A stretch of 64,000 nucleotides of DNA from Escherichia phage JSE. The stretch lies in the sequence record EU863408. One strand, given 5' to 3'. The position numbers and the translations under genes were made by a program. Under the pieces are notes generated by a model. The model did not search any database and was not told the origin of the DNA. It worked only from the letters and a program-made list of their open reading frames with translations. This document shows, one piece after another, positions 15,271 to 63,873 of the stretch (position 1 is its first letter; each line of letters starts with the position of its first letter).

Positions 15271-16125
15271 ATGGCACAAGTTCCAAAGAAAAGAATAGAC
15301 ACAGGTACTGTCGGCAATCCCAGCACCGGGGACATCCTCTATGACGGCGGTAATAAAATTAACGATAACTTTGATTCAATATATGACGCATTTGCTGATC
15401 AACGGTTTAAAGACGTAGACCACGGCGTAGGAAGAATGGTTATTCATGCAACCGGATACTATCAGAAACATCCACGTCAAAGCTACTCTGGTTCCGCTGT
15501 TGAGATTGGGAGTCTACACGATATCGATACAACTCAAGGCGCACTTATTGCTATTCTACCTAAAGCAAAGGTCGGTGAGGGTGTTGTATTCATAAATAGT
15601 AACGGTAGCCTTTCAACGACTACACCGCTCAATATTCGAACTCAAGCAGGTGATTCTATTAGCGGGTATTCCGGTGATGCTACAATAACACAACCATTTT
15701 CAAAAGTCACTGTTTGGTGTACTGCCGTTGAAGGTAGTCGCGTAACATGGCGATTGGGTATCGAAAGTATGTTTACCGATACAACAACGCCATTAGATAA
15801 AACAGTTAACGTAACTGGAGTAGCAACAAACGTTGCTATTGCCGCAAAAACAGAATACGTTTCCATCAAATTATTAACTACCGCTAGCAATACATCCGGT
15901 TCAAAAATGCGTTCAAGTGAAACGCTACTGATGATTGATTCTAAAGCCGGAAAAGTTTATGCGACGGAATATGCAGTTTTGCAGAAGACAGAAGACGAAT
16001 TATACACGGTTCGTTATTTCATCGGTTCCGGCGATAAAGTATATGCAGAGTATAAGGCTACTGGCGAAAATATTCGTTTAGCAGTTAAAGCCGTAGACAC
16101 TATTAAAATCGGGGTTGCTACATGA
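15271..16125 (+). CDS. 9: baseplate wedge / long tail fiber socket gp9-like
   Basis: 284 aa; N-terminus PKKRIDTG.VGN.STGDIL.DGGNKIN matches recalled T4 gp9. Confidence 0.85.
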   Translation: MAQVPKKRIDTGTVGNPSTGDILYDGGNKINDNFDSIYDAFADQRFKDVDHGVGRMVIHATGYYQKHPRQSYSGSAVEIGSLHDIDTTQGALIAILPKAKVGEGVVFINSNGSLSTTTPLNIRTQAGDSISGYSGDATITQPFSKVTVWCTAVEGSRVTWRLGIESMFTDTTTPLDKTVNVTGVATNVAIAAKTEYVSIKLLTTASNTSGSKMRSSETLLMIDSKAGKVYATEYAVLQKTEDELYTVRYFIGSGDKVYAEYKATGENIRLAVKAVDTIKIGVAT

Positions 16126-36105: not shown

Positions 36106-36132
36106 GGAATCCTTCGGATTCCTTTTTCTTTT
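36106..36132 (+). terminator. intrinsic terminator
   Basis: GGAATCC-ttc-GGATTCC followed by TTTTTCTTTTT. Confidence 0.6.
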
Positions 36133-36134
36133 TG

Positions 36135-36142
36135 TATAAATA
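36135..36142 (+). promoter_or_regulatory. late promoter TATAAATA upstream of gene 24
   Basis: exact TATAAATA 37 nt before the ATG at 36180. Confidence 0.5.
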
Positions 36143-36179
36143 TGATATATCCATTAAGGCAAATACAGGATTCATAAAC

Positions 36180-37421
36180 ATGACTCATATTTTTACTGAA
36201 CTGTTGCGGGAATCTACTTCCTCAGTAGCTAACCAGACAGCGCGACCGCAACTATTATCATTAACTCGCGCGGTAAACAACCTGATTTTCTCTGATCTGG
36301 TAGCAATCCAGCCAACGGATCAACCAGTATCTGCATTGTACGGCCTACGTTATCTTAATCGTGATGGTCAGATGACTTTCCGAACTGCTACAACCTACGG
36401 TGGCGCGGCTGGTGATCGCACAGAGATTGAAGAGTTTTCAAAAGAAAAATCTTATGACGAAGGCGCACTGTTCAAATCAGACAATGTTGTATACGAAGTT
36501 GTGACCGCTGGTACAGTCGGTGCAGATGCCGAAACTCCAGAAGCTGCAATCTTTAAAGGCATAATGACAAACAAAATTCGTTTCTATAGCGATTGTGCAT
36601 CGGTAGAATACTTTGAAGATAAAAACACCGAAATTTCGTCTACCTCTATGCAGTTTGATAAATGGCAGGTTAATGTAGGTTCTCGTAAACTGAAAACCTC
36701 ATTCACGACCGAATTGATGCAGGATCTTGAGGCAAGCCAAATCAACTCTGAAAACTCTGTAATTGATCTTCTGGCTACGATCGCTTCAGAAGAGATCAAC
36801 AAAGATATTATTCAGAAGTTGATCACTGTATCATCTCGCTATAAAATTAAAGGGATCACCCCTGACGGCGTACTTTCTCTCGTTAGCGTTCAGGATGCAC
36901 CAGCACAAGCGCGTGAACTTTACCGCTATGCTTGCGAAATGAGCAATCAAATGTTGCGGACTTCCTCCTTTTCTGGTACATACGTTTTGGCGTCTTCTCG
37001 CGTGGTTGGCCTCCTACAATCTACCGGATGGATGGAAGAAACCGACAATGCTCTAAGCGAAGGTCGTCTACGTTGCGGTCTGGAAGTGTACGCAGACACG
37101 ACAGCACCTTTCGATTATATGCTCGTTGGTTGTAAGCACATGATCGGTGATATGGAGAGTGTAGGTTCTCTGTTCTACTCCCCATATACAGAAGCCGACG
37201 GCGCTGGCGCGTATAAGAGTGTAATTGACCCTAATAGCTTCCAGCATCATGTAGCTATTATGAATCGTTATTCACTCTCTGTCAACCCATATACATCAAA
37301 AGTTGATCAGGAAGAACACCAGGTCATCAAGGGTGACGATTGGGGTAAAATGGCTGGACGTTCAGAAATGTCCTACATTTTAGGAATCGAACTGCCACCG
37401 CTTGAGATTGACAACGCTTAA
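36180..37421 (+). CDS. 24: head vertex protein gp24-like
   Basis: 413 aa from internal ATG (MTHIFTELL); lies after the late promoter; gp23 paralog position. Confidence 0.8.
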   Translation: MTHIFTELLRESTSSVANQTARPQLLSLTRAVNNLIFSDLVAIQPTDQPVSALYGLRYLNRDGQMTFRTATTYGGAAGDRTEIEEFSKEKSYDEGALFKSDNVVYEVVTAGTVGADAETPEAAIFKGIMTNKIRFYSDCASVEYFEDKNTEISSTSMQFDKWQVNVGSRKLKTSFTTELMQDLEASQINSENSVIDLLATIASEEINKDIIQKLITVSSRYKIKGITPDGVLSLVSVQDAPAQARELYRYACEMSNQMLRTSSFSGTYVLASSRVVGLLQSTGWMEETDNALSEGRLRCGLEVYADTTAPFDYMLVGCKHMIGDMESVGSLFYSPYTEADGAGAYKSVIDPNSFQHHVAIMNRYSLSVNPYTSKVDQEEHQVIKGDDWGKMAGRSEMSYILGIELPPLEIDNA

Positions 37422-44357: not shown

Positions 44358-44756
44358 TCACTTTGCAAGTCTTATGCGTAGTTGTTCAAGATCATCTGGG
44401 TTATCTATTACTGAAAAGTAGATTGATACTATGATTGAGTTATCGTCGTACTGCGGAGTTACTTCTACTGTCAGGTTTCGGACCCGTGGTTCATAGTTTC
44501 GGATCGCCTCATTGATGTTTTTTGATAAGGTATCCACTGTCAGTGGGTTCATGTTCTCAAACAGTGATTTATTGAGATCGCATCCAAACAGTGGATCAAA
44601 TGGACGAGATCCCTTGCGAGTAGTCACGATCAGTAGAATAGAATCTTTAACCGCTTTAATCCCTATGTTCTTTTTAACGTCGTTATTCCACGATCTGGAT
44701 ATATTGAGATCCAAATCAGTATACATCTGATTAATAGTTGCCATGTTATACCTCAA
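44358..44756 (-). CDS. 25: baseplate wedge protein gp25-like
   Basis: 132 aa; TTRKGSRPFDP.FGCDL and YEPR...FSVIDNPDD match recalled T4 gp25. Confidence 0.9.
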   Translation of the reverse strand: MRYNMATINQMYTDLDLNISRSWNNDVKKNIGIKAVKDSILLIVTTRKGSRPFDPLFGCDLNKSLFENMNPLTVDTLSKNINEAIRNYEPRVRNLTVEVTPQYDDNSIIVSIYFSVIDNPDDLEQLRIRLAK

Positions 44757-45382
44757 AGAATTTTAAGGAAACTGGATAGACCTGATAATGAATATACACC
44801 AGATTCCCCGCATTCGCACTTGATCGGTACTGCCAGCGTGATTTGATTTCTTGTTAGCTCGTCGATCACTTCTTCCACTTTATCCGTGGTAAGCATATCC
44901 AGCACGCGGTCAAAGTCCTGTGCGTTCAGGTCGTCTATATTGAATTGCTGATCGCCGATCACGATATATTCGATACATGCAATTACCATCTGCATAATAT
45001 CAACATCTTCTGTAAACTTAGGTTGACGAAACTTGATTTTTACTTGTCCTAAGTCCAGAATATACGGTTCAACTTCTGGTATCTGTGTGCGTGAAACATC
45101 AAGAGAGTATACTTTCTCTTTATTGCATACACCACACACCCAAGTAGCATCAATTTTCATCTTATTGAGGCTGTGACACCATAAGAGAAGAAAAATATAT
45201 TCTGCTTCGCATTTCTCTAGCTCTAATGCATTGATCCCCGTACATTCATGTATGATCTCTATAACAACCTCTGACAGCTTGCCAGTCTCTTTTGCTGCTA
45301 CCAGTTTTTGAAATTCGCCGAAGGTGAAAGCACGGGCGTGTATCAACTTTTCGCCTAATTGGATCTTGAAAAAGTATTGCAT
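44753..45382 (-). CDS. 26: baseplate hub protein gp26-like
   Basis: 209 aa; position. Confidence 0.75.
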   Translation of the reverse strand: MQYFFKIQLGEKLIHARAFTFGEFQKLVAAKETGKLSEVVIEIIHECTGINALELEKCEAEYIFLLLWCHSLNKMKIDATWVCGVCNKEKVYSLDVSRTQIPEVEPYILDLGQVKIKFRQPKFTEDVDIMQMVIACIEYIVIGDQQFNIDDLNAQDFDRVLDMLTTDKVEEVIDELTRNQITLAVPIKCECGESGVYSLSGLSSFLKIL

Positions 45383-45452: not shown

Positions 45453-46223
45453 ATGAATATTATCCGAATAAAACTGCCGGAAGGTGTGCAGAGATTTAAA
45501 CCATTCACGGTAAAAGATTATAGAGATTTCCTTCTGGTGTCAACTGAAATTAAGATGAATCCAGAAGAAGAACAAACGATTCTGGATGAGCTATTAGAAG
45601 AAATATATCCAGAAGTAGATCCGGCATTTCGTGAATATATTTTCCTGAATGTCTTTACTAGCTCAATTGGTAAAACAAAGATACCGCTTTGTTTTACTTG
45701 CCCGACTTGCAACAAAGAAAGAAAAATGTTGCTTAACTTACAGGTTGAAGCACTAAAACCAATCGTTCTAGAGGCCGCAGGGCTTAAAATAACTTTCCGG
45801 TATGTTAAACCATCAACCGACTATGCAAAAACGTTTCTGGATGCGATAGAGCGTGTATCTGATGGTATTAATGATTATCTATGGACTGAATTACCGGAAG
45901 AAGTTAGAGAACAGGTTATCGATTCAATCTCATTTGCTGAATTTGAAGAAGTTGTTAAGCAGATGCACACAATCAAGATCGAACAAAAGATATCTTGTTG
46001 TGAAAGTCATGACCTGAAATACATAGGTCTTCTTCCATTATTCAAATTGTTGTTGAATCCAGATGAGTTATTCATCTTTTATCGAATAAACCATCTATTG
46101 GCAAAATCAAATTATTCTATCAGTGATCTTATGGATATGTTACCGATTGAGAGAAACATTGCACTGACACTGGTCGAGAAAGACGTAAAAGAGGCAAATA
46201 ATGCAAAGAACGGGGTTTCCTAA
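45453..46223 (+). CDS. 51: baseplate hub assembly protein gp51-like
   Basis: 256 aa; position. Confidence 0.75.
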   Translation: MNIIRIKLPEGVQRFKPFTVKDYRDFLLVSTEIKMNPEEEQTILDELLEEIYPEVDPAFREYIFLNVFTSSIGKTKIPLCFTCPTCNKERKMLLNLQVEALKPIVLEAAGLKITFRYVKPSTDYAKTFLDAIERVSDGINDYLWTELPEEVREQVIDSISFAEFEEVVKQMHTIKIEQKISCCESHDLKYIGLLPLFKLLLNPDELFIFYRINHLLAKSNYSISDLMDMLPIERNIALTLVEKDVKEANNAKNGVS

Positions 46224-51587: not shown

Positions 51588-52066
51588 GCTAAATCATTGC
51601 AATATTTTAGTGCCTTAGTTTGAAATTCTGCGCTGTTAAGTTCTTCATAACGGTCATAATCACCGTTTAATGCTGCCTTTCTTGCTTCTTGCTCTATCTG
51701 CATGTCAGACATGATAATACAGCGATCCCGTGCTTTCATCTTCTCAAGTTGTATAGACTCTTCTTTCTGTTTGCGCAATTCTTCTTGACGCTTCTTTTCT
51801 TCTCGTGCTTTCTCTTCCCGCGCTTCTTTGATTGCATCCTTGAACATCTGCGTTTGTGGTGCTAAACCAACTTTAACGCGATCCACGTCTCGACGTTCCA
51901 TTTTAGAAATAAAGCATGATTCGATCTGATCATCACTTGCATATGCTGCTTTACATTCACGAAGCAAGAAAACCGGATCTGATTTAGCATTCATCATAGC
52001 TTCCATGTTAGCACAACCAGTAAGAATGAATGCAGCCGCAAGACCAATCAGTTTAATCATTTTCAT
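51581..52066 (-). CDS. putative lipoprotein
   Basis: 161 aa; signal peptide with lipobox LTGC; charged helical C-terminal half. Confidence 0.55.
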   Translation of the reverse strand: MKMIKLIGLAAAFILTGCANMEAMMNAKSDPVFLLRECKAAYASDDQIESCFISKMERRDVDRVKVGLAPQTQMFKDAIKEAREEKAREEKKRQEELRKQKEESIQLEKMKARDRCIIMSDMQIEQEARKAALNGDYDRYEELNSAEFQTKALKYCNDLAK

Positions 52067-52887
52067 TTAGTCACCTCACCGAAAATTGTAAATTGTCTAC
52101 GATTCTCATCGCCGAAAGATTCTACTACGTCGTTTACCTTGACGCAAGTCCCGCGCGGTAAAATTACTTCACATTCGCAAGGGTTCCATGCAATGGACCC
52201 AACAACAAAACCTTTATGATCTTTTACATCAATCACCCATGATACATTACAAGAATGTTGCATCTTTCCGGTCATTGATTCATATCGATTCTCACAATAA
52301 AGGCTAGTGCTGTTTGATAGCCATCCTCCAAAGATGATCGGTGTCATGCTGGTCGATACAAAGTTTTTAAAGGTAAACTCCTTATCTTCAATGATGCGCT
52401 CTATTGTCTGAATGTCAAGATGTTGACCGCGATAAAGAGTACCGTTTAACTTTTCGGTTTTATCCATGACGCAATCCATCAAATCAACAATCTCTGATAT
52501 CTCATCGGTCATGTCTTCTTCGCCTAAGAGAGCACCATTTACCCATTCGTATTGTTCAGACACATAATCACAGATTGCAGTATATTCTTCTGGGGTTATG
52601 TTGTTATGTTTGTAATGTTTGAATACATTATCTCCAAAGTCTTCGGAGTGTACTTCATACATCACATTAATGATTTTCTTGACAAATCCATAATCTTGTG
52701 TCTCACGCTCAAGGAAGCGGATAACCTTCACATAATCATCAAAGTTAATCTGATCGCTGATCATCTCAGTGATCATGTAACCATTAATCCCCTCAATGTC
52801 ATATGTTTCGATGTAATTATCCATACGTTCCATCATTGATTCGCGTGATTCTTCCGAAAGACGAAAATCCTGTAATTGTTTGAACAT
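52063..52887 (-). CDS. Alt-like ADP-ribosyltransferase paralog
   Basis: 274 aa; R-S-ExE triad LYRGQ, FVSTS, CECEVILPRG; GGGAGG before ATG. Confidence 0.65.
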   Translation of the reverse strand: MFKQLQDFRLSEESRESMMERMDNYIETYDIEGINGYMITEMISDQINFDDYVKVIRFLERETQDYGFVKKIINVMYEVHSEDFGDNVFKHYKHNNITPEEYTAICDYVSEQYEWVNGALLGEEDMTDEISEIVDLMDCVMDKTEKLNGTLYRGQHLDIQTIERIIEDKEFTFKNFVSTSMTPIIFGGWLSNSTSLYCENRYESMTGKMQHSCNVSWVIDVKDHKGFVVGSIAWNPCECEVILPRGTCVKVNDVVESFGDENRRQFTIFGEVTK

Positions 52888-52965: not shown

Positions 52966-55017
52966 TTACATTTTAAATTTATCTGGCATTGCGTCTACAG
53001 ATACCAGATCAGCGATAAGCTGACGTAGAGTTGCCTTATCTGCTTTCTTACGTTCGGTTTTAGCTTCGCTAATGAAGCTGGAGAAAGACAGGTCAGAAGC
53101 AGGTTTAACAACACCTTCACGGATGAATGCATCACCGTCTGCGATCATCTCGCCAGATTCTTGTAATGCTGCCAGTTCATTTTTGTTCATAATATGTGCC
53201 TCAATGTAATAAGTTTCTTGTGAATCCGTCGATGCCGTAGCACGAGTTACCGTATCAAAGGATAACACAACACCGCGAGGAAGTAAAATCTCGCATTCTT
53301 TGTAAGCAAATGCTTTGTTACCTACTGGCAATACAGGGATGTTTTCCGCGCCAGCAATGGAGAAAGCAACATTAGCGCCACCTTCACCGCGAGAGCCAGC
53401 CATAGAATCAACACCAGCAACGGCACTAGCCACGTTTGCATTCCAGCCGCCAAAAATGTTAGGTGCAAGGGAAGTGCTCACATAGTTTTTAAAGTAAAAC
53501 GCTTTTTGCTTACGTGCAGTTTCCCACATTTGCGACCGGAAGTCCATACCACGATACAGAATAGTACCCGGATCAAGTTTAACGCCATAGTTGGAGAAGG
53601 CATTATCCAGTGCATCGCACATCTTGACCAATTCTTCTGGATCTGAGATTCCTTCAAACTCTTCCAGCTTACGGTCGGTTAGGAAGTTGTTCATATTGAT
53701 GTATGCTGCATCGGCATATTCGCTCAACACAAAACCTTCCGCGCCTGGCAGATCAAGATCAATATTTGCCATCATTTCACCCATGTTGCTAGCAATTGCT
53801 TCAAACATACCGGAAGCAACATTACGTAGGGCATCGGTTTTAATCTGGGTGATATTACTACGCAGCATTTCAGCTTTTACATCTGCTGGCATAGACTGGT
53901 CTACTCGATCCATTGCCAGTGCGGTGATCTTGTTTTCGAATACTTCCTCGCTCATGATTTCTTTTAAGCGTTTGATTGATGCTGCGATAACTTCCGCAGA
54001 CAACGGATCATATTGATCCTGAACTTTTACCAGTTCGCTTACTGCGTATTTTGCATCGGCTTCGCTTTCAAAAATAGTACGCATGAAACCATAGCGAGTG
54101 ATAATATCACTTGTCCAGTCATTCAGAGAACGGGCGGTTGAACGTTCTAAGGCTTGACGATCAATCAGAGTATTAAACTGTTTCTTAGGTTCTGCTTCGG
54201 TGATATCTTCTTCCGGTTTAAGATTAATTTTTTCTGGATGATTCACATAGTCGCTGTTATAGGTCGCTTGAGTTTTCAGCATTTCTTCTTTAGTCAAACG
54301 AGATTTAGCCGCTACGCGTTGTTCCGCTTCCGCGTTTCGTTCTTCTTCTGACACAAGACTAGCCGCATACGCTTCATCTTTAGTCAGAGATTCACCAGTA
54401 GCCTTAGATACCCAGCGATCACCTAAATCACTTTCTACTTTAGTGAACAAGGAATCATCAAGTTTAATCCCTTTAATCTTATCAATCGCCATACCGCGAC
54501 GCTTGACAACAACTAAAGCGATCTTTTTGCTGGTCATTACTTCCTGCTGGAATACTTCAAACTTCGGTGTACGACGCACCAAACGCTCTATAACGCGCTT
54601 AACCAGTTCGGTCTTACCTTTCATGCGGGATACGTTAAAACGGAACATAACAGCGTCTAGTTGCGCTTTACGGGCTGTTTCCATAACCACATCAAAAGCA
54701 CTTGACATAACTGCAATCGGGTTATCGCCTAGACCATTTTTAAGCTGTACAATACGACCGCTTTTGTTCATTTCGCACAGTACAACATGTGCGGTCTTGT
54801 CACCCATACGAATGATTTTAGGTGTTTTGTTGGTGAAGTTACAAAGACGGACAATCACATCTTTATCGCGTGTCTGTACTGCAAAAAGCTGTTTAGGATT
54901 CTGCTTAGGCTTTAAGCACTGTACCGGGGCAATACTACCAAAGTTTTCTTCCTCTTCCGTCAACAGCCATTTCTCGAAAGATTCAATCATTAGATCGTCG
55001 ATTTCTAAGTTAAACAT
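52966..55017 (-). CDS. alt: Alt ADP-ribosyltransferase (packaged protein)
   Basis: 683 aa (T4 Alt 682 aa); ILYRGM, YVSTS, ECEILLPRG. Confidence 0.8.
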   Translation of the reverse strand: MFNLEIDDLMIESFEKWLLTEEEENFGSIAPVQCLKPKQNPKQLFAVQTRDKDVIVRLCNFTNKTPKIIRMGDKTAHVVLCEMNKSGRIVQLKNGLGDNPIAVMSSAFDVVMETARKAQLDAVMFRFNVSRMKGKTELVKRVIERLVRRTPKFEVFQQEVMTSKKIALVVVKRRGMAIDKIKGIKLDDSLFTKVESDLGDRWVSKATGESLTKDEAYAASLVSEEERNAEAEQRVAAKSRLTKEEMLKTQATYNSDYVNHPEKINLKPEEDITEAEPKKQFNTLIDRQALERSTARSLNDWTSDIITRYGFMRTIFESEADAKYAVSELVKVQDQYDPLSAEVIAASIKRLKEIMSEEVFENKITALAMDRVDQSMPADVKAEMLRSNITQIKTDALRNVASGMFEAIASNMGEMMANIDLDLPGAEGFVLSEYADAAYINMNNFLTDRKLEEFEGISDPEELVKMCDALDNAFSNYGVKLDPGTILYRGMDFRSQMWETARKQKAFYFKNYVSTSLAPNIFGGWNANVASAVAGVDSMAGSRGEGGANVAFSIAGAENIPVLPVGNKAFAYKECEILLPRGVVLSFDTVTRATASTDSQETYYIEAHIMNKNELAALQESGEMIADGDAFIREGVVKPASDLSFSSFISEAKTERKKADKATLRQLIADLVSVDAMPDKFKM

Positions 55018-56137: not shown

Positions 56138-56467
56138 TTATAGTCTCCTGAATGGATCATCACGTAAATCAATATCTTTTAAGAACTCATCCCATGAATG
56201 CCGGATATTGTTCTTAATTCTCCAGATAAGCGCAGGGATTGAACGCTCTCCCATCTGGAAGTAAGGATCATATGATCCGTATGCCCAATATGCTACTACA
56301 ATTCCACAATCAGCGCAATAGTATTCTATTTCACTTGCTGGCGACCAAAGTCCATCAATATGATCGGTGATCTTGCTTTCGATGTTATGGCTATGACAAT
56401 CAGGGCAACGGATGCAATGACCTTGTTTATCGTAATTTGACGTTAGCGAATACTTAAACAATCTCAT
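56138..56467 (-). CDS. hypothetical Zn-ribbon protein
   Basis: 109 aa; CIRCPDCH ... CADCG. Confidence 0.5.
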   Translation of the reverse strand: MRLFKYSLTSNYDKQGHCIRCPDCHSHNIESKITDHIDGLWSPASEIEYYCADCGIVVAYWAYGSYDPYFQMGERSIPALIWRIKNNIRHSWDEFLKDIDLRDDPFRRL

Positions 56468-57183
56468 TATAGATCCTTATTTGCTTCAAATACTGCCTTT
56501 GCGAATCCTCGCGGGGTAAGTGACCTTATAGTCTTTGTTTTCGTTCCTTTCCCGCCTAGCTTAGAATGCTGTTTACTGTACCCTTTATTAATCTGCAACG
56601 GTTTCTTTTCTGGCATTATAAAGCCTTGTCCGGACCATAAGCAAGTCTTTTTCGGGTACATATCACGGGCGGCAATATACTCAGGAAACGTAGGATGCTT
56701 ATCATCTTCCGGCAAATAACCGCCATATTCCCACGGATGGAACATATAATCAGGCTTACGCCACATGCTAGAGATAACGCTTACAGGATTCTCTATCATG
56801 TAGGGAACTCCTAGCCATTCACCCAAATAAGCGGTTATTTTAGCTGCCCTTACATCATGAACTTGAATCAATGGTCCTTGCTCTCGTTTCTTTCGTTCAA
56901 AGTGTGCAGCGCCACTAACAGCTAAATTGGTGCACGGTGGGAATGCAAAGATAATATCCGGTTTCCCCCATTCAAGGTCCATTGCTCTTTCCAGCCAGTT
57001 CAAATCAATCCAGGTGTTTACATAGGTAATGTTTGGATGTTCAAATCTGGTATTATACTTTTTGTATGTACCGTGGTCGGCGTCATCCGCATTAAAGCAG
57101 ACTACCTTATGACCTGCTTTAGCCCATTCTAGCCCCATTATCCCCGATCCGTCAAAGTTGCAGAATATTAATTTTTGTTTCAC
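56467..57183 (-). CDS. compact C5-cytosine methyltransferase-like protein
   Basis: 238 aa, GTG start; motif I-like FDGSGIMGL, motif IV DIIFAFPPCTNLAVSG, motif VI-like MIENPVSV; no obvious TRD. Confidence 0.45.
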   Translation of the reverse strand: MKQKLIFCNFDGSGIMGLEWAKAGHKVVCFNADDADHGTYKKYNTRFEHPNITYVNTWIDLNWLERAMDLEWGKPDIIFAFPPCTNLAVSGAAHFERKKREQGPLIQVHDVRAAKITAYLGEWLGVPYMIENPVSVISSMWRKPDYMFHPWEYGGYLPEDDKHPTFPEYIAARDMYPKKTCLWSGQGFIMPEKKPLQINKGYSKQHSKLGGKGTKTKTIRSLTPRGFAKAVFEANKDL

Positions 57184-57431: not shown

Positions 57432-57471
57432 TGTTTGATTCTCCTAAGTGGTATCTCGTCTTGATGGTTGT

Positions 57472-57500
57472 ATTGTAGGGGAGTTATCCTCCCCTGTCAA
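57472..57500 (-). promoter_or_regulatory. repeated early-promoter cassette, copy C
   Basis: minus-strand TTGACA-GGGGAGGATAACTCCCC-TACAAT. Confidence 0.5.
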
Positions 57501-57514
57501 CACTTTTTATAAAA

Positions 57515-57682
57515 TTATTTGTTAATTTCTGGTGCGTTGCTAGGATAGTAACCTTCTTTAACTCCGAGATATTTCGCAACCATCCCTACAATCTTCTGTG
57601 CTACTACAATGTCAAATTTCAGATAATCTTCGCCGTGGGTTTCAATGATATATGCTTCACATGCTGCTTTAGTCTCGAACAT
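57515..57682 (-). CDS. hypothetical protein (55 aa), paralog of 60994-61161
   Basis: MFETKAACEAYIIETHGEDYLKFDIVVAQK...; near-identical second copy. Confidence 0.5.
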   Translation of the reverse strand: MFETKAACEAYIIETHGEDYLKFDIVVAQKIVGMVAKYLGVKEGYYPSNAPEINK

Positions 57683-57715
57683 TTTGATTCTCCTATTTCG
57701 TTTCGGTATGTGTGT

Positions 57716-57744
57716 ATTATAGGGGATCGGTGATCCCCTGTCAA
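57716..57744 (-). promoter_or_regulatory. repeated early-promoter cassette, copy D
   Basis: minus-strand TTGACA-GGGGATCACCGATCCCC-TATAAT. Confidence 0.55.
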
Positions 57745-57750
57745 CAACTT

Positions 57751-58062
57751 TTAGCGACGGCGACGATGTTTTTTGCGAGTTGCCTTTTTGTATGCTTTAT
57801 ATGCCTTTTTACCGTTTTTATATGCTTTTTTGGTATATGATTGATTTTTCTTATTGTTTTTGTATGTTTCCCGGTCAGTATTAATTTCGTTACATTCCAC
57901 GAAACGGTGTCGATGTTCTTGTGGTATGATCAAACATTTATCATAATTAACCATTTCGTTTTTCGTTGTTTGTGGTTTCTTTGGTGTGTTGTTTGCACTA
58001 ACAGACCCAGCAAAGAGAATGAGTATAGCGGTCATTAACGCAAACATTGTTTTCTTAATCAT
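57751..58062 (-). CDS. secreted small protein with lysine/arginine-rich tail
   Basis: 103 aa; N-terminal signal peptide; C-terminal KKAYKNGKKAYKAYKKATRKKHRRRR. Confidence 0.5.
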   Translation of the reverse strand: MIKKTMFALMTAILILFAGSVSANNTPKKPQTTKNEMVNYDKCLIIPQEHRHRFVECNEINTDRETYKNNKKNQSYTKKAYKNGKKAYKAYKKATRKKHRRRR

Positions 58063-58120
58063 AATATTCTCCTTTAGTTTCTGCGGGAGTGTGAATATAA
58101 CACTCCCTTAATATTTTGTA

Positions 58121-58402
58121 TTATTCGTGATTAGTTTCGATGTTGTGCATTTTGCACCAGTTCAGCCAATCGCCCAGATCTTGATAGTTAATGCTTTTAT
58201 CTGCTGCCATCGTTTTTGTCTTGATACCCATATGTGCGTTATGAGTAAGCATTTTTACAGTGAACTCGATTTTATCGCCTTTAGCTTTAACATCAACCAG
58301 TTTGGTCCACTGGCTACCAGCACCGCGAATGTTCATACCAACGATGTTTCCGATGTATGCTTCTTTGTTTTTCAGGATTTCGGTTGCTTTGATGAATTTC
58401 AT
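58121..58402 (-). CDS. hypothetical protein
   Basis: 93 aa; conserved leader before ATG. Confidence 0.5.
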   Translation of the reverse strand: MKFIKATEILKNKEAYIGNIVGMNIRGAGSQWTKLVDVKAKGDKIEFTVKMLTHNAHMGIKTKTMAADKSINYQDLGDWLNWCKMHNIETNHE

Positions 58403-58435
58403 TTTTGATTCTCCAGTTCGTTTCGGTATGGGTGT

Positions 58436-58464
58436 ATTATGCTATGTTCTTACTTTGGTGTCAA
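58436..58464 (-). promoter_or_regulatory. repeated early-promoter cassette, copy E
   Basis: minus-strand TTGACA-N17-CATAAT. Confidence 0.5.
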
Positions 58465-58473
58465 CAACTTTTT

Positions 58474-58743
58474 TTAGATATTTTCAGAAATAAATTTTAA
58501 AACTTGACGTAAATGTTTCTCATCTTTGATGGTAGCCGGAAGTTCTTCTTTTACTTCCTGTGCAAGATAGATATTTCCGTTCCAAGTGAAAGATCCGTCT
58601 TCGTTTACTCGATAGCTGAACATCCACTCGCAATCATTTTCGATTTCATATACACACAGAAGGGTGTAATCGTTAAAGCTATTGATTTCAAGGTCGAAGC
58701 CGTGACGTTTTGCAAAGTTGGTAGTGGTTTTAGTCAGTACCAT
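58474..58743 (-). CDS. hypothetical protein
   Basis: 89 aa; conserved leader. Confidence 0.5.
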   Translation of the reverse strand: MVLTKTTTNFAKRHGFDLEINSFNDYTLLCVYEIENDCEWMFSYRVNEDGSFTWNGNIYLAQEVKEELPATIKDEKHLRQVLKFISENI

Positions 58744-58783
58744 TGTTTGATTCTCCTAAGTGGTATCTCGTCTTGATGGGTGT

Positions 58784-58812
58784 ATTATGCTATACACAGG
58801 ATCTGGTGTCAA
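58784..58812 (-). promoter_or_regulatory. repeated early-promoter cassette, copy F
   Basis: minus-strand TTGACA-N17-CATAAT. Confidence 0.5.
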
Positions 58813-58840
58813 TGCCTTTTTTAAAATTTTATGCAATAAA

Positions 58841-58866
58841 AAAGCCGACGCTAAGGTCGGCTAATA
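58841..58866 (-). terminator. intrinsic terminator (minus strand)
   Basis: minus-strand AGCCGACC-ttagc-GTCGGCT followed by TTTTTTATT. Confidence 0.55.
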
Positions 58867-58869
58867 AAA

Positions 58870-59177
58870 TCATTTAGACAAATAATCATTCAGTGCAATC
58901 CGGTCGGCGTATGCTGGTGTTACGTCAATCGCAATCACTTTAACGCGTGCTTTCTTGCGACCTGGGTTTTCTCGTAACCAGTGCTCATGACCGTGAACAT
59001 TTTATACTGCGATGCTTCTTCGAAAGTACGGATCGGACAAGGGTAATCAGCGTAAAGGATCTCTAGGTCTTCGGTGATGTAAAAATATACATCATAATTA
59101 CTGTTCTCTAGTTTAAGCAGAGACTTTCGGAACATTGGGAGATTTTCGCGGGTAAATTCAAAGATATTATCTTTCAT
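58870..59177 (-). CDS. HxHW-family small protein, frameshifted at a 4-nt homopolymer (59000-59003)
   Basis: N-part in ORF 58935-59177; C-part (NVHGHEHW...VKVIAIDVTPAYAD...) in another frame; adding one A joins them. Confidence 0.4.
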
Positions 59178-59201
59178 AGTATTATCCTCAATAGTTGGAT
59201 G

Positions 59202-59223
59202 AAAAGGGGGGCTTAATGCCCCG
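59202..59223 (-). terminator. intrinsic terminator (minus strand)
   Basis: minus-strand GGGGC-atta-GCCCC followed by CTTTT. Confidence 0.45.
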
Positions 59224-59227
59224 TATA

Positions 59228-59515
59228 TTAAAACAGTCCTTCCTGTACACCGTAGTAGAGTTCATCGCTGATAATTTCATTAATGCGACGGTGTGCATAT
59301 TCCTGATTTGCGAAGTTGTCAGCAAGTTCTACTTTAGTTTCGCCATCATGAGTCCATTTAGTGATAACTTTACCATCGGCAAATTTGAAGTTGAACTCTT
59401 TAGCTACCGCATCGCGTACCAGACGTGCAAACTTATTGTTGCGGATTGCATTGTCGGTTTCGTGTGCAGCGTGAGCGAATTTGTTAACTTTCAGAGTGAT
59501 AGTAATGTATGCCAT
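59228..59515 (-). CDS. hypothetical protein (KEFN family)
   Basis: 95 aa; shares VR.A.AKEFN.K with 62649-62960. Confidence 0.5.
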   Translation of the reverse strand: MAYITITLKVNKFAHAAHETDNAIRNNKFARLVRDAVAKEFNFKFADGKVITKWTHDGETKVELADNFANQEYAHRRINEIISDELYYGVQEGLF

Positions 59516-59562
59516 AATTTGATTCTCCTAGTTAGAAAGTGTATCTCGTTTCGACGGGTGTA

Positions 59563-59591
59563 TTATGCTATACACCCGATCCATTGTCAAC
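59563..59591 (-). promoter_or_regulatory. repeated early-promoter cassette, copy G
   Basis: minus-strand TTGACA-N17-CATAAT; dyad GGGTGTA/TACACCC over the -10. Confidence 0.5.
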
Positions 59592-59922
59592 GCCTTTTTA
59601 TAAAATAATTTTCGATATCTTTATGATGTTTTTCTCGTGCTTGGTCTGCCTCGGCTGGCGATACGTTGGAAGCGATAATCTTCACTACTGTTGCACCTTT
59701 TTCGGTGTCCGACACCCAATGATTATGGAAACCGCTATTATTAAACACTTGATAAGAAAATGATTTAATGTTAGGGAAATTATAAGTGTAATAACGTACC
59801 CTTAATTCTGAATCTACGTATAGATAGATCACCGCACCTAGATAGACCGTCTCACTCGTTCCGTCAACTAACAGTAGAGTATTTCGCAATTCTTCTAAAT
59901 TGTCTTTTGTAAGAAAAATCAT
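59587..59922 (-). CDS. HxHW-family small protein
   Basis: 111 aa; FHNHW...VKIIASNVSPAEAD. Confidence 0.5.
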   Translation of the reverse strand: MIFLTKDNLEELRNTLLLVDGTSETVYLGAVIYLYVDSELRVRYYTYNFPNIKSFSYQVFNNSGFHNHWVSDTEKGATVVKIIASNVSPAEADQAREKHHKDIENYFIKRR

Positions 59923-59936
59923 AGTATAATCCTCAA

Positions 59937-60260
59937 TTAAACCAAATTAACTTTGGTGTTGTGGTGGTTTTCTCGTGCGTCGTCCGCTTCTTCCGGTGTC
60001 ACGTTACGAGCGACGACAATAACACTTGCTGCCTCTCCGTGATGATAGATCTCTACCCAATGGTTATGATTTGCGAATCCGTGTTTTATTGCGTAAGCGA
60101 ACGGCTTAGACGTCCAGTAGTAACTATAATATCGTACATTTAGATCGCTATCAATGTACAAATATGTGCTGTCGTTTACATTGCCACTAACAACAAAAAC
60201 AAGACAATTGCGAAGATCTGACAATATTTTGTCTGTCAATTTTATAATGTGACTGTTCAT
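59937..60260 (-). CDS. HxHW-family small protein
   Basis: 107 aa from ATG at 60260 (track ORF begins at a GTG, 60272); NHNHW...VIVVARNVTPEEAD. Confidence 0.45.
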   Translation of the reverse strand: MNSHIIKLTDKILSDLRNCLVFVVSGNVNDSTYLYIDSDLNVRYYSYYWTSKPFAYAIKHGFANHNHWVEIYHHGEAASVIVVARNVTPEEADDARENHHNTKVNLV

Positions 60261-60262
60261 AA

Positions 60263-60478
60263 TTAACACCACTCAAGAGTTTTTGAAAACACATCTATCC
60301 ATTGTTGAGTATATGCGGTTTCTTTCCATGACACAATACCAGTCGAATAATGGTTTTTGTTTCCAGAAAAGGACGGGCATTTTGATGCATCTTCCATCAT
60401 CTTTTCGGCGAACTCTGGTTCGTATACCCGCAGAATCTGTTGATATGCTTTGTATTCTTTAAATTTGCTCATAATCAT
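60263..60478 (-). CDS. hypothetical protein
   Basis: 71 aa; overlaps both neighbours in other frames. Confidence 0.35.
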   Translation of the reverse strand: MIMSKFKEYKAYQQILRVYEPEFAEKMMEDASKCPSFSGNKNHYSTGIVSWKETAYTQQWIDVFSKTLEWC

Positions 60479-60737
60479 TCACTACCTTATCAGCTTCTTT
60501 TGTTGTTTTTACATCAACTGCGATAACCCGTAAAGGTTCGTCATGGTTCCACCAATGATCGTGAATATCGGCTTGTGATTTATCACCAAAGGAATCACGA
60601 ATATCATTTTTACATTTATAGCTAATGTGACCGTCATAGTCAACATAAAGGTAATTATCGAAAATCGGCGTTTTTAAGATCATACCGAAAAATCTTTCTT
60701 TGTGTGTCTTATCCAGTGTTGCAGTAATTCGCATCAT
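60459..60737 (-). CDS. HxHW-family small protein
   Basis: 92 aa; HDHWW...RVIAVDVKTTKEAD. Confidence 0.5.
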   Translation of the reverse strand: MMRITATLDKTHKERFFGMILKTPIFDNYLYVDYDGHISYKCKNDIRDSFGDKSQADIHDHWWNHDEPLRVIAVDVKTTKEADKVVNDYEQI

Positions 60738-60749
60738 AATATATTCCTC

Positions 60750-60929
60750 TTAGAAAGGGATGGTCATTTCTTGAGCTTGTACATTCTCGTTAGGATTAAA
60801 CTTCATCCAACCGATATTGTCTACCAGCATATGCACATTTTTATCATATCCTACGTGGGTAGTCAATACTGTATGTGCTTTACCTTCAACGATGATTTCC
60901 ATGTACTTCTGAACTTCGATAGCTTTCAT
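60750..60929 (-). CDS. hypothetical protein (59 aa)
   Basis: conserved leader GGAGAATCAAA before ATG. Confidence 0.4.
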   Translation of the reverse strand: MKAIEVQKYMEIIVEGKAHTVLTTHVGYDKNVHMLVDNIGWMKFNPNENVQAQEMTIPF

Positions 60930-60961
60930 TTTGATTCTCCGTTTGTTGTCTTGATGGGAGT

Positions 60962-60990
60962 ATCTTACTACTCCCTTTAATCATTGTCAA
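60962..60990 (-). promoter_or_regulatory. repeated early-promoter cassette, copy H (divergent)
   Basis: minus-strand TTGACA-N17-TAAGAT; dyad GGGAGTAGTA/TACTCCC. Confidence 0.4.
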
Positions 60991-60993
60991 CTA

Positions 60994-61161
60994 TTATTTG
61001 TTAATTTCCGGTGCGTTGCTTGGATAGTAGCCTTCTTTAACACCCAGATATTTTGCAACCATTCCGGTGATCTTCTGTGCTACTACGATATCGAATTTCA
61101 GGTAGTCTTCACCGTGGTTTGCTACAATGTATGCTTCGCATTCTGCTTTAGTCTGGAACAT
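60994..61161 (-). CDS. hypothetical protein (55 aa), paralog of 57515-57682
   Basis: starts at the internal ATG (MFQTKAECEAYIVANHGEDYLKFDIVVAQK...) after the conserved leader. Confidence 0.5.
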   Translation of the reverse strand: MFQTKAECEAYIVANHGEDYLKFDIVVAQKITGMVAKYLGVKEGYYPSNAPEINK

Positions 61162-61195
61162 TTTTGATTCTCCTATATCTCGTTGGTATGTGTGC

Positions 61196-61224
61196 ATTAT
61201 AGGGGATCACCGATCCCCTGTCAA
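61196..61224 (-). promoter_or_regulatory. repeated early-promoter cassette, copy I
   Basis: minus-strand TTGACA-GGGGATCGGTGATCCCC-TATAAT. Confidence 0.55.
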
Positions 61225-61229
61225 CAACT

Positions 61230-61524
61230 TTATAATGCTTTATATGCGTATTTCATAAATTTGTCTGCCACTTCATTGGCATGTTCAGATTCTACGCCTG
61301 ATTCGAGAACAATAGCTAGGTCGGTTTCGTCATTCCCGCCGTACCAATGATTTGATGTTCGATTTTTTTCAATTGGAAATTGGTCACTTTTATCTGTGCG
61401 ACAAAATACATCTAAATGCTCATCGATGTAAAAGATCCAATCTTCATAAAGAATAACGGGTATTAGCAAGATTTTTATTGCCTTCAACGAAAGGTTCGGC
61501 TACAAACAAATTAGTATGTTCCAT
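61230..61524 (-). CDS. hypothetical protein, frameshifted at a 5-nt homopolymer (61472-61476)
   Basis: ATG at 61522-61524 with GAGGA opens a 26-codon frame; removing one T joins it to ORF 61230-61487. Confidence 0.35.
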
Positions 61525-61540
61525 AGTAATTTCCTCAAAA

Positions 61541-61732
61541 TTATACAGCTTCGTAAACTTCCCAATGTCCAACACCAGCACGCTTAACGAAAAGGTTTTC
61601 TTTGATGTTATTCATAAACGTCTGGATGGATTTAATGCGGTTTGAAGGTTTCCATTCTTCGTTGGAATTGCGGCGATACATAATAACATTACCAGTTCGC
61701 TTATATTCAGCAACCATTTTAAGACAACACAT
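61541..61732 (-). CDS. hypothetical protein
   Basis: 63 aa; GAGGATAAT before ATG. Confidence 0.45.
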   Translation of the reverse strand: MCCLKMVAEYKRTGNVIMYRRNSNEEWKPSNRIKSIQTFMNNIKENLFVKRAGVGHWEVYEAV

Positions 61733-61780
61733 AATATTATCCTCAATTTGTGGGAGAGTATTACCCCTCCCGATGTTGTT

Positions 61781-61809
61781 ATATTACATTACACAAAATG
61801 GCGTGTCAA
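61781..61809 (-). promoter_or_regulatory. repeated early-promoter cassette, copy J (variant with 5'-UTR hairpin)
   Basis: minus-strand TTGACA-N17-TAATAT followed by hairpin GGGAGGGGTAATACTCTCCC. Confidence 0.4.
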
Positions 61810-62109
61810 TGCTTCTTTTGCGGTTCCGCTAAGACTTTCGATCTCGCCTGGCATAACATCAACCGCCAGAACTTCTACAACATCCTCGGACCCTAACCAG
61901 TGAGTATGGCCTTTGTAGAACTTGATAACCAGACTACCTTCCTCGTCCCATTTAACGCTATCGCTAGCCCACCACACATCACCGTCGATAAAGTTGATGT
62001 AAAGCACACTACGCCACATTGAATTAATTACTTTCAATACTGCGCCTTTCATCTCTTCCACGGTATGGTCTTCCATTTTGAAGACCTCACCTACCTGAAC
62101 TTTTGCCAT
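61789..62109 (-). CDS. HxHW-family small protein
   Basis: 106 aa from internal ATG (MAKVQVGEV...); GHTHW...VVEVLAVDV. Confidence 0.5.
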   Translation of the reverse strand: MAKVQVGEVFKMEDHTVEEMKGAVLKVINSMWRSVLYINFIDGDVWWASDSVKWDEEGSLVIKFYKGHTHWLGSEDVVEVLAVDVMPGEIESLSGTAKEALTRHFV

Positions 62110-62110
62110 G

Positions 62111-62377
62111 TTACATGCTCCGAATATGTTTAGCTGCATCTTCCAGTTCGTCGATAGTGACACTGTGTGCCAGTAAGTGTACTGGTTGTGGTTCTTCACC
62201 TTCCATAGTATTGATCAGATGACCGTTTCCTGGGTGGAATGTATCGTTGCCGTTCCAAATAGCATACACATCATCTTCTGTTACGTAGATAATAAGTCCA
62301 ATCGGTGATTCTGGTAATTGAAAAATTTTACCCACTGCATCTTTGCGATTGTTTACGATATCTTTTACTGTCTTCAT
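62111..62377 (-). CDS. hypothetical protein (distant HxHW relative?)
   Basis: 88 aa; stop lies 1 nt before the next ATG. Confidence 0.45.
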   Translation of the reverse strand: MKTVKDIVNNRKDAVGKIFQLPESPIGLIIYVTEDDVYAIWNGNDTFHPGNGHLINTMEGEEPQPVHLLAHSVTIDELEDAAKHIRSM

Positions 62378-62396
62378 TTAGTTACCTCTCGTTAAA

Positions 62397-62576
62397 TTAC
62401 ATCACAATCACGCCAGCCGTTGAAAGTTGATGTTTCAACTGAGCATTTTCTGCTACTGTCAAATCAATGATTTCTTGTGACGCTGCAATCATATAGCCAT
62501 TGGTGATATTGTTTTGCATCAGTTCAATGGTTTCTTCGTTGTAGCGGATTTTAGCGATGATTTCGTTGAAGTTCAT
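62397..62576 (-). CDS. hypothetical protein (59 aa)
   Basis: conserved leader GGAGAATCAAAC before ATG. Confidence 0.4.
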   Translation of the reverse strand: MNFNEIIAKIRYNEETIELMQNNITNGYMIAASQEIIDLTVAENAQLKHQLSTAGVIVM

Positions 62577-62610
62577 GTTTGATTCTCCTAGTTCGTTTCG
62601 GTATGTGTGT

Positions 62611-62640
62611 ATTATAGGGGAGTTTAACCTCCCCTGTCAA
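62611..62640 (-). promoter_or_regulatory. repeated early-promoter cassette, copy K
   Basis: minus-strand TTGACA-GGGGAGGTTAAACTCCCC-TATAAT (18-nt spacer). Confidence 0.5.
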
Positions 62641-62648
62641 CAACTTTT

Positions 62649-62960
62649 TTAAAGTTTTTCCATGATAACGGTCATAATTACATCTTCTGCGCGAGCGGTC
62701 AGATTATCAGCGTCAGCATGTGGGCGGTTGGTTGTTACAGAGATAACACCGTTGCGCACTGGTTTGATATTGATATCAAGATGATCCGCGAAACGTTCGC
62801 CAGTTACAGAATGAATTTTGGTGTTAAATTCTTTTGCCAGTGCCTTGCGAACTTCACGAATCAGGATAGCGTTTTTCAGTTGGTTCTCCGCGCTCATGGT
62901 CTTCTGGGTGTTCATGGTTCCGTCGAAGTCAATCATTGGCAGCGTTACGATGTATTTCAT
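62649..62960 (-). CDS. hypothetical protein (KEFN family)
   Basis: 103 aa; shares VRKALAKEFNTK with 59228-59515. Confidence 0.5.
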   Translation of the reverse strand: MKYIVTLPMIDFDGTMNTQKTMSAENQLKNAILIREVRKALAKEFNTKIHSVTGERFADHLDINIKPVRNGVISVTTNRPHADADNLTARAEDVIMTVIMEKL

Positions 62961-63004
62961 TTTTGATTCTCCGTTTAAGAAAGTGTGTTTCGTTTTGATG
63001 TGTG

Positions 63005-63033
63005 TAGTATAGGGGATACGTGATCCCCTGTCA
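63005..63033 (-). promoter_or_regulatory. repeated early-promoter cassette, copy L
   Basis: minus-strand TTGACA-GGGGATCACGTATCCCC-TATACT. Confidence 0.5.
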
Positions 63034-63047
63034 ACAACTTTTTTGAA

Positions 63048-63392
63048 TTATTTTTTCATGAGCTTAATGGCTTCTTCCATAGCCAGCACATTTCGATAGT
63101 TAGGGTATCGTGTTAGATCGTCATACATTCGCTTAAGGGTGGAAACTTCCTCAAACTCTGGGTTTTCTAGATACAGTTGAACAAATTGTTTCTCTACCAT
63201 CTCGGCTTTTAGCTTGTCTGCTTGTTCCTGTTCATATGATTTCGTTGGACCCAACACCAACAAAATGATAAAGGTGATCAACGGGCTAATGATCAATGAT
63301 AGGATAACATAACCGATAACGCTACGGTTTAAACGGCTTGCGTACATGCCTACCAGGAAAACAAAAAGGATATAGATAAACAGAAAGAACAT
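63048..63392 (-). CDS. small membrane protein
   Basis: 114 aa; two N-terminal hydrophobic helices, charged helical C-terminus. Confidence 0.5.
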   Translation of the reverse strand: MFFLFIYILFVFLVGMYASRLNRSVIGYVILSLIISPLITFIILLVLGPTKSYEQEQADKLKAEMVEKQFVQLYLENPEFEEVSTLKRMYDDLTRYPNYRNVLAMEEAIKLMKK

Positions 63393-63399
63393 ATAATAG

Positions 63400-63873
63400 T
63401 TACTCCTTATTTTCGCGCTCGTACTTTTCGAAATAAAATTCTACTGGCTGGTCATGAATTGACAGCAAGCCAAAGCGTTTAGCCGCTCGCAATCCCATAT
63501 TGCGCTGAATATACTTCTGGAAGTTCTCGCGTATACACTTACGCCAGTATTCTAAGCCCATACAGCTTTTATAAAGATTGCATTGTACACACGCCGGATT
63601 CATGTTATCAAGTATATCATGTTCCGGTTTATGCATTCCTACGACCTTATACTTCCACGATCCATCATCATTACGGGCAATTCGTCCATTTTCATCATAG
63701 ACTACCTTTGAGCGTCGCAATACTGGTTTGATGTGGTCTGCGTGCCAGCGATCCCCTAGTTCCTCGCCACAATAGGCACAACGTCCACCATATTTCATTT
63801 TCAGGATCTGGCGTTGCTCTTTCTTTGACAATTTTTTAGGTTTAGGGGCTTTCGCCCCTTCATTATCACACAT
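63400..63873 (-). mobile_element. HNH endonuclease (free-standing homing-endonuclease-like)
   Basis: 157 aa; CAYCGEEL ... HADHIKPV ... NMNPACVQCNLYK. Confidence 0.7.

Follow-up and report, generated by a model that had tools for sequence, protein, structure and literature searches.

Small-gene families at the locus

The stretch of Escherichia phage JSE DNA analysed here (the window; 64,000 nucleotides of sequence record EU863408) carries between positions 57,515 and 62,960 a block of small genes in which three families of paralogues recur: the HxHW proteins (family a), a pair of 55-residue proteins (family b) and the KEFN pair (family c). Over 5.6 kb the region shares 93–96% DNA identity with 57 phage records, all RB49-like T4-type phages of the genus Krischvirus. 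It is syntenic with RB49p190–p212: a DNA methyltransferase gene (56467–57183) is followed by about 20 small minus-strand open reading frames (ORFs), an HNH endonuclease gene (63400–63873) and, past that, the ligase gene gp30. Judged by sequence and gene order, the paralogue-bearing stretch is the hyperplastic region HPR3 of an RB49-like phage. HPR3 is the name that Arbiol et al. (2010) gave to this cluster in RB49 and phi1, where it is rich in PeSL elements, i.e. strong sigma-70-like early promoters combined with a stem-loop, for which promoter activity has been reported (PMC2839356).

HPR3 has been described before, together with its mobile regulatory cassettes and ‘ORFans’, and the genes are annotated as hypothetical and clustered in PHROGs. 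The cassettes of RB49 and phi1, each a PeSL with an ORFan, were described by Arbiol, Comeau, Kutateladze, Adamia and Krisch (2010; PMC2839356) and by Comeau et al. (2014; PMC4122927). They occupy the same region and have the same promoter/stem-loop repeats as the JSE locus. Circular excision products were sequenced for ORFs 191–194 and for ORFan210, and cassettes excised as such mini-circles get packaged (PMC2839356); ORF191 and ORFan210 are the orthologues of b1 and c2, respectively. The text of Arbiol et al. (PMC2839356), searched for paralogues and duplications, makes no mention of paralogy among the HPR3 ORFans, and in literature searches no publication turned up in which these ORFs are handled as families of paralogues or given a function.

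In the window, PeSLs were recovered by a repeat search as families of 64–70-nt intergenic repeats. A promoter scan found ten minus-strand sites with 10–12 of 12 consensus matches (63034, 62640, 61809, 61224, 60990, 59590, 58812, 58464, 57744 and 57500), which coincide with these repeats. The genes therefore appear to form about ten short early units (Table 1). As in a PeSL cassette, b1, b2, c1 and c2 are each preceded by an element of the type TTGACA-N17/18-TATAAT whose hairpin is GGGG...CCCC or a variant thereof. For three of them a second PeSL lies immediately downstream, so that b1 sits between elements at 57682–57751 and 57451–57514, b2 between 61162–61231 and 60941–60990, and c2 between 62972–63048 and 62577–62646. 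Individual family (a) genes do not have a PeSL on both sides and are arranged 2–5 genes per unit.

Table 1. Family members, PeSL elements and predicted transcription units of the HPR3 region in phage JSE
Feature	Position	Strand	Remarks
a1	58870–59177	minus	orthologue of RB49p197; frameshifted; in-frame ORF only 58935–59177 (80 residues); phrog_9345
a2	59587–59922	minus	111 residues; phrog_9345; rare allele; 54% identical to RB49p200
a3	59937–60260	minus	107 residues; phrog_9345; tandem neighbour of a2 (43% identity); modelled with AlphaFold2
a4	60459–60737	minus	92 residues; phrog_15972; orthologue of RB49p203
a5	61789–62109	minus	106 residues; phrog_16486; orthologue of RB49p208
a6	61230–61524	minus	phrog_15965; orthologue of RB49p206; frameshifted, split into 61459–61524 (N-terminus) and 61230–61487
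88-residue ORF	62111–62377	minus	possible further family (a) relative; similar layout without HxHW; in only 7 phage records
b1	57515–57682	minus	55 residues; phrog_8009; orthologue of RB49p191 (ORF191)
b2	60994–61161	minus	55 residues; orthologue of RB49p205
c1	59228–59515	minus	95 residues; phrog_7474; orthologue of RB49p198; model beta-alpha-beta-beta-alpha
c2	62649–62960	minus	103 residues; phrog_7474; orthologue of RB49p210 (ORFan210, Arbiol et al. 2010); PeSL on each side
PeSL directly upstream of b1	57682–57751	minus	TTGACA, hairpin GGGGATC-ACC-GATCCCC, TATAAT, leader, ribosome-binding site; belongs to the duplicated unit
PeSL directly upstream of b2	61162–61231	minus	87% identical to the b1 PeSL; 3-nt hairpin loop inverted (GGT)
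PeSL upstream of c2	62972–63048	minus	repeat search and promoter scan
PeSL downstream of c2, heading orf59b – orf88 – a5	62577–62646	minus	repeat search and promoter scan
PeSL heading c1 – a1	59541–59604	minus	repeat search and promoter scan
Promoter/PeSL-like element heading orf59a – a4 – orf71 – a3 – a2	60941–60990	minus	repeat search and promoter scan
Unit: PeSL – c2		minus	
Unit: PeSL – orf59b – orf88 – a5		minus	
Unit: promoter – orf63 – a6		minus	
Unit: PeSL – b2		minus	
Unit: promoter – orf59a – a4 – orf71 – a3 – a2		minus	
Unit: PeSL – c1 – a1		minus	
Unit: PeSL – orf89		minus	
Unit: PeSL – orf93, then orf103		minus	orf103 (57751–58062) without a strong promoter of its own
Unit: PeSL – b1		minus	
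Unit: PeSL – orf83		minus	

The HxHW family

As defined here, HxHW proteins are about 85–115 residues long and consist of a Y-x-Y-[IV]-[DNT] beta-hairpin, an H-x-H-W loop, a V-x-V-[IL]-A-x-[DN]-V strand and an acidic helix start (E-A-D). BLASTP in an all-against-all comparison joins only a1, a2 and a3 (E 4e-20 to 3e-7) and misses a4, a5 and a6. A hidden Markov model (HMM) built from a1–a3 and run against the 334 ORFs of the window recovers a4 (E 2e-5) and a5 (E 8e-4) and, after one further round, a6 (E 2e-4); no other window ORF joined the family in the iteration. Smith–Waterman comparisons give z of 5.7–28 in 11 of the 15 member pairs, with none of 200 shuffles reaching the observed score. 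The local alignments mostly run from residues ~5–30 to ~85–100, i.e. over most of each protein. The most conserved columns lie in the middle and the C-terminal half: Y35, H65, H67, W68, the V-x-V-[IL]-A-x-D-V strand and the start of the E-A-D helix. Similarity confined to the leader-encoded N-termini, which the earlier note on this DNA had named as the finding that would refute its families, is therefore ruled out. The alignment has no conserved stretch of 7–10 columns.

The same note had described five HxHW genes with a shared motif set. The motif set holds: the HxHW pattern is present in a1 (once its frameshift is corrected), a2, a3, a4 and a5, and a6 has S-N-H-W here and H-N-H-W in most orthologues. 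As for the genes, a2, a3, a4 and a5 are intact ORFs at the positions given, but 58870–59177 (a1) is not a single open frame, and the count rises to six with a6, which had been overlooked. Two of the six are frameshifted in JSE. The a1 ORF stops at 58935, and a missing A puts the HEHW...VIAIDV...YAD part into another frame: an alignment with the intact RB49p197 (309 nt) shows A4 at 59000–59003 against A5 in RB49. The resulting 80-residue product is identical to protein EpJSE_00203 (P0079). In a6, the ORF at 61230–61487 holds WIFYIDE...SNHW...LAIVLESGV...EHANE, and the true N-terminus, MEHTNLFVAEPFVEGNKNLANT (61459–61524), is put out of this frame by an additional C at 61458–61460 relative to RB49p206. 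On the sequence, these single-base homopolymer indels could be marks of real pseudogenes or sequencing errors. Programmed frameshifting at a1 was rejected on inspection of the sequence, as the run is only A4 and there is no canonical slippery heptamer. Frameshifted family (a) genes occur in other genomes or assemblies too (kvi P0063, P0091 and P0088), in one case apparently at an A7 run in a6 (P0091 compared with a6). In the chimera P0078, the N-terminus of orf59a is joined to the C-terminus of a5.

The PHROGs database keeps five groups of family (a) proteins apart, namely 9345 (a1–a3), 15972 (a4), 15965 (a6), 16486 (a5) and 17255 (RB49p199), all labelled ‘unknown function’ and with weak cross-hits among them. 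Every member of the three families matches its own PHROG over the full length (E 1e-38 to 1e-72). The five groups are joined here by the HMM iteration, by the cross-hits and by a natural fusion protein. The latter, the 203-residue P0087, contains two family (a) domains and matches four of the five PHROGs and therefore ties these together. It is encoded on a 2.1-kb metagenomic contig (Logan SRR8048117, L002), in which four adjacent genes (229–2019) amount to five family (a) domains; this array is denser than those of Krischvirus. By these sequence criteria PHROGs 9345, 15972, 15965, 16486 and 17255 are one superfamily, which is new here.

A word-indexed search of 5.8 billion clusters returned 79 clusters for family (a). 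Among 1.84 billion representatives, an exhaustive profile search yielded only 23 hits, all uncharacterised, of which ~17 are convincing members; the family is therefore narrow, and the same search found no distant characterised relatives. One borderline hit, P0099, matches neither PHROGs nor Pfam. Three further hits that are long and repetitive (P0095, P0097 and P0098) were set aside as PPC-domain or other proteins that match only the beta-hairpin. The metallo-beta-lactamase superfamily, considered because of the HxH motif, was also rejected, since the combination of HxHxDH and an alpha-beta/beta-alpha sandwich of at least 200 residues is absent. Instead of inhibiting proteins, family (a) might consist of small metal-dependent enzymes or of proteins that bind a metal or ligand. 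In that case, H-x-H together with the conserved acidic patch would bind a metal, the functional unit would be a dimer, and the substrate could be a nucleotide or a signalling molecule. We regard this as unlikely.

Family (a) varies from phage to phage. Its copy number is 4–6 in six other Krischvirus loci. In JSE, the tandem pair a3+a2 fills the slot of RB49p200+p199, and the window has no p199-type gene. Apart from their resemblance to each other (43% identity), a2 and a3 are 46–54% identical to RB49p200, and out of 50,697 phage records a single one (KMB43) has the a3+a2 pair. The ratio of non-synonymous to synonymous substitution rates (dN/dS) between orthologues is 0.04–0.5 for a4, a5 and a6, and mostly below 0.25 across a4, a5, a6, b1, b2, c1 and c2. 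A 20-kb metagenomic T4-like contig (L003) carries two family (a) members and a c1-like gene in a block of small ORFs right after the ligase gene. A family (a) gene adjoins a c1-type gene both in the window (58870–59515) and in this divergent contig (8743–9409), in reversed order. The adjacency may reflect a functional pairing or chance within small gene blocks.

The 88-residue ORF at 62111–62377 resembles family (a) by eye (IIYVTEDD...GNGHL...LLAHSV...ELEDA). Its match to the family is weak (HMM E 0.15–0.3, Smith–Waterman z 3.9), and no profile could be built from it because its only homologues are seven near-identical copies.

The 55-residue pair and its PeSL cassettes

The proteins b1 and b2 are identical at 49 of 55 residues (89%) and their genes at 142 of 168 nucleotides. 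The earlier description of the pair as near-identical is thus right for the proteins, but the duplication is not a recent one: 19 of the 26 nucleotide differences are at third codon positions, and dN/dS is 0.05 at a dS of ~1.05, which together indicate an old duplication with both copies strongly constrained. DNA similarity sets in at the -35 box of the PeSL upstream and ends just past the stop codon, so that the duplicated unit is exactly PeSL, leader and ORF. The PeSLs of b1 and b2 are also each other's closest relatives (87% identity, against 66–71% to the remaining PeSLs). Such boundaries are predicted by the RB49/phi1 cassette model, and in sequence they look like the footprint to be expected of the PeSL mini-circle mechanism.

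The minus-strand hairpins of the two PeSLs read GGGGATC-ACC-GATCCCC (57716–57744, b1) and GGGGATC-GGT-GATCCCC (61196–61224, b2); their loops, ACC and GGT, are reverse complements of one another. The difference looks like a loop flip and is consistent with a crossover inside the loop, as reported for the RB49 mini-circles by Arbiol et al. (PMC2839356).

Family (b) was found at 114 places in 64 records. Most Krischvirus genomes have both copies and some only one. Homologues with 70–72% identity occur in unrelated 45–48-kb siphophages, e.g. Swiduovirus swi2, and the gene therefore moves horizontally. In swi2 (L008, 3001–3156) and other siphophages of this size, the homologue is part of a small two-gene insert, oppositely oriented, that separates structural from packaging genes. 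Family (b) has no PDB or Pfam match, and PHROG 8009 is labelled ‘unknown function’.

In another explanation of the region, the genes are essentially cargo of selfish PeSL cassettes, retained because the cassettes spread rather than for a benefit against the host. It would account for the excision and packaging of mini-circles (PMC2839356), for presence and absence varying between close relatives, for the tolerance of frameshifted copies and for the presence of family (b) in unrelated siphophages. However, both ancient b copies and the orthologues of families (a) and (c) are under strong purifying selection, and most family (a) genes have no PeSL flanks of their own. Since strong purifying selection on the protein sequences of all three families implies function at the protein level, we consider the cargo explanation improbable.

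The KEFN pair and its DinI-like fold

The third claim is that the two KEFN proteins form a family. BLASTP finds no match between c1 and c2, and Smith–Waterman aligns only a 24-residue KEFN segment (z 6.7). The claim is nevertheless upheld, as both proteins match phrog_7474 from end to end (E ~1e-43) and are bridged by an intermediate sequence. In a tblastn search against all phages, c1 (E 2e-8) and c2 (E 7e-5 to 5e-4) match the same Gaprivervirus gene, VR25_147, at overlapping coordinates. The N-terminus of VR25_147 is c2-like (MKxI-xxL..DFD.T.N...SAEN) and its C-terminus c1-like (RRI..I.SDELYYGVQE). RB49p210 (L001, 7311–7640) carries a tandem duplication of 18 nt, ERFADHERFADH, which c2 of the window lacks.

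A rival reading takes the families for artefacts of shared regulatory or leader sequence, of short chance motifs or of spurious ORFs in AT-rich intergenic DNA. The BLASTP blank between c1 and c2, the abundance of repeated PeSL DNA in the region and the lack of an intact ORF for a1 would all fit it. Against this, alignments cover most of each protein and are best conserved in the C-terminal half, none of 200 shuffles reaches the observed scores, substitutions are mainly at third positions with dN/dS far below 1, independent profile libraries and the intermediate sequence connect the members, and PeSL similarity stops before the coding sequences diverge. We regard an artefactual origin as excluded.

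The c1 model has the beta-alpha-beta-beta-alpha fold that characterises E. coli DinI (~80 residues; PDB 1GHH and 7YWA), without a detectable sequence relationship. DinI-like small protein modulators are carried by phages, e.g. the antirepressor Tum of coliphage 186. Family (c) could comprise true DinI-family members that modulate filaments of host RecA or phage UvsX. The c1 model finds its best structural match in DinI in complex with RecA, c1 and DinI agree in size and in the order of secondary structure, and the only piece aligned by hhalign is the C-terminal helix (RRINEIISD in c1, KQRISEILQE in DinI), which is structurally equivalent in both. The hhalign probability of a DinI profile match is, however, 0.35%, and DinI was found neither in Pfam at E up to 10 nor in the PDB profile search. 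A relationship at the level of sequence was rejected on these grounds, and membership in the DinI family is doubtful.

For the families as a whole, the earlier statement that none has an obvious known domain stands: Pfam, NCBIfam and PDB sequence searches were negative, and all the PHROGs are labelled ‘unknown function’.

Origin and possible role of the families

By sequence comparison, all three families are real and their products small, single-domain and selectively constrained. The proposal that small paralogues arose here by repeated duplication and divergence is likewise supported by the family tests, and the genes lie behind sigma-70-like early promoter cassettes. Two routes to them are well supported. 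Along the first, recombination between two PeSLs excises a cassette of PeSL and ORF that re-inserts at another PeSL; this gave the dispersed genes b1 and b2, and c2 sits in a cassette of the same kind. Along the second, tandem duplication and allelic replacement within operons gave the six-member family (a). In arising mostly by this second route and not through single-ORF cassettes, family (a) differs from the system described for RB49 and phi1.

HPR3 gene content varies among close relatives while the proteins are under purifying selection. The region resembles the arrays in which T-even phages carry early accessory genes; these are likewise small, promoter-proximal, early, variable among close relatives and flanked by regulatory repeats that promote shuffling. 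The HPR3 families have no relationship in sequence or fold to any characterised T4 protein. Counter-defence genes known from T4 belong to these lineage-specific T-even arrays, as do the internal-protein (IP) loci, of which PMC2839356 gives a discussion.

We infer that the proteins of the three families bind or inhibit host factors or defences in the immediate-early phase. They would act right after infection, as stoichiometric binders or inhibitors of proteins of the host or of competing elements, with paralogues and alleles covering different target variants, and would thus serve as accessory host-takeover or counter-defence factors. Family (c) would bind through its DinI-like protein-binding fold. 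Family (a) would be a lineage-specific alpha/beta domain, probably dimeric, with the invariant H-x-H-W loop as the likely functional site. An anti-defence or host-takeover role is plausible and fits early expression, the pattern of presence and absence, slot replacement and purifying selection. For the explanation as a whole, i.e. HPR3, the two duplication routes, constrained proteins and early binding or inhibition of host factors, our confidence is moderate.

Several observations weigh against it. No member matches a known anti-defence or host-takeover family. We infer early expression of the small genes from promoter sequences and from the published work on RB49/phi1. The resemblance of family (c) to DinI is one of fold only, and its topology is a common one. 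Most family (a) genes lie inside multi-gene units, so PeSL shuffling alone is insufficient for this family. Finally, the frameshifts in two of six family (a) genes, with similar ones elsewhere, mean that individual members are dispensable or that there are homopolymer errors in the sequence.

A more far-reaching version of this explanation would make family (a) a previously unrecognised fold that forms homo- or heterodimers, binds a metal or small ligand through H-x-H-W and represents a new class of counter-defence or host-takeover effectors, with an arms race against variable E. coli targets behind the six-gene array and the allelic replacements; in family (c), a cryptic DinI-like protein would modulate the RecA of the host. 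The dimer is suggested by the natural tandem fusion. Taken together, these further steps are speculative and unlikely to hold in full.

The finding sharpens a known kind of phage region with uncharacterised families and describes no new system. New at the level of sequence are the union of five PHROGs into a six-copy family, its sixth member and the two frameshifts; also new are the PeSL-bounded b duplication, dated as old, and the bridged c pair with its DinI-like fold. The unexplained genes of T4-type phages lie mostly in hyperplastic regions, and accessory regions of this kind have yielded many counter-defence factors of phages. A block of ‘hypothetical proteins’ becomes three defined families, for which boundaries, conserved residues, models and copy numbers are now available, and a small candidate set (six a, two b and two c) for deletion and expression screens. 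The b pair is also a sequence-level example of the PeSL cassette mechanism yielding a retained duplicate, with both copies under strong purifying selection.

Neighbouring genes and other paralogous pairs

The product of the minus-strand orf103 has an N-terminus like a signal peptide and a tail that is very rich in Lys/Arg. The gene fills the slot held in RB49 by the mobile ORFan192; neither PHROGs nor Pfam gave a match, and six sampled Krischvirus loci lack an orthologue. In contrast to the adjoining genes, orf63 (61541–61732, minus) is under weak constraint (orthologue dN/dS 0.74–0.85), and going by this ratio it may be a fast-evolving gene or not a real one.

Elsewhere in the window, further pairs of paralogous ORFs (BLASTP E 1e-9 to 1e-19) are 15271–16125 and 16122–17924, 33956–35542 and 36132–37421, 45453–46223 (plus) and 44753–45382 (minus), and 52063–52887 and 52966–55017. 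The last pair probably encodes two adjacent Alt-like ADP-ribosyltransferases, because the genes of relatives at the matching position, just past the methyltransferase block, are annotated as ADP-ribosyltransferases.

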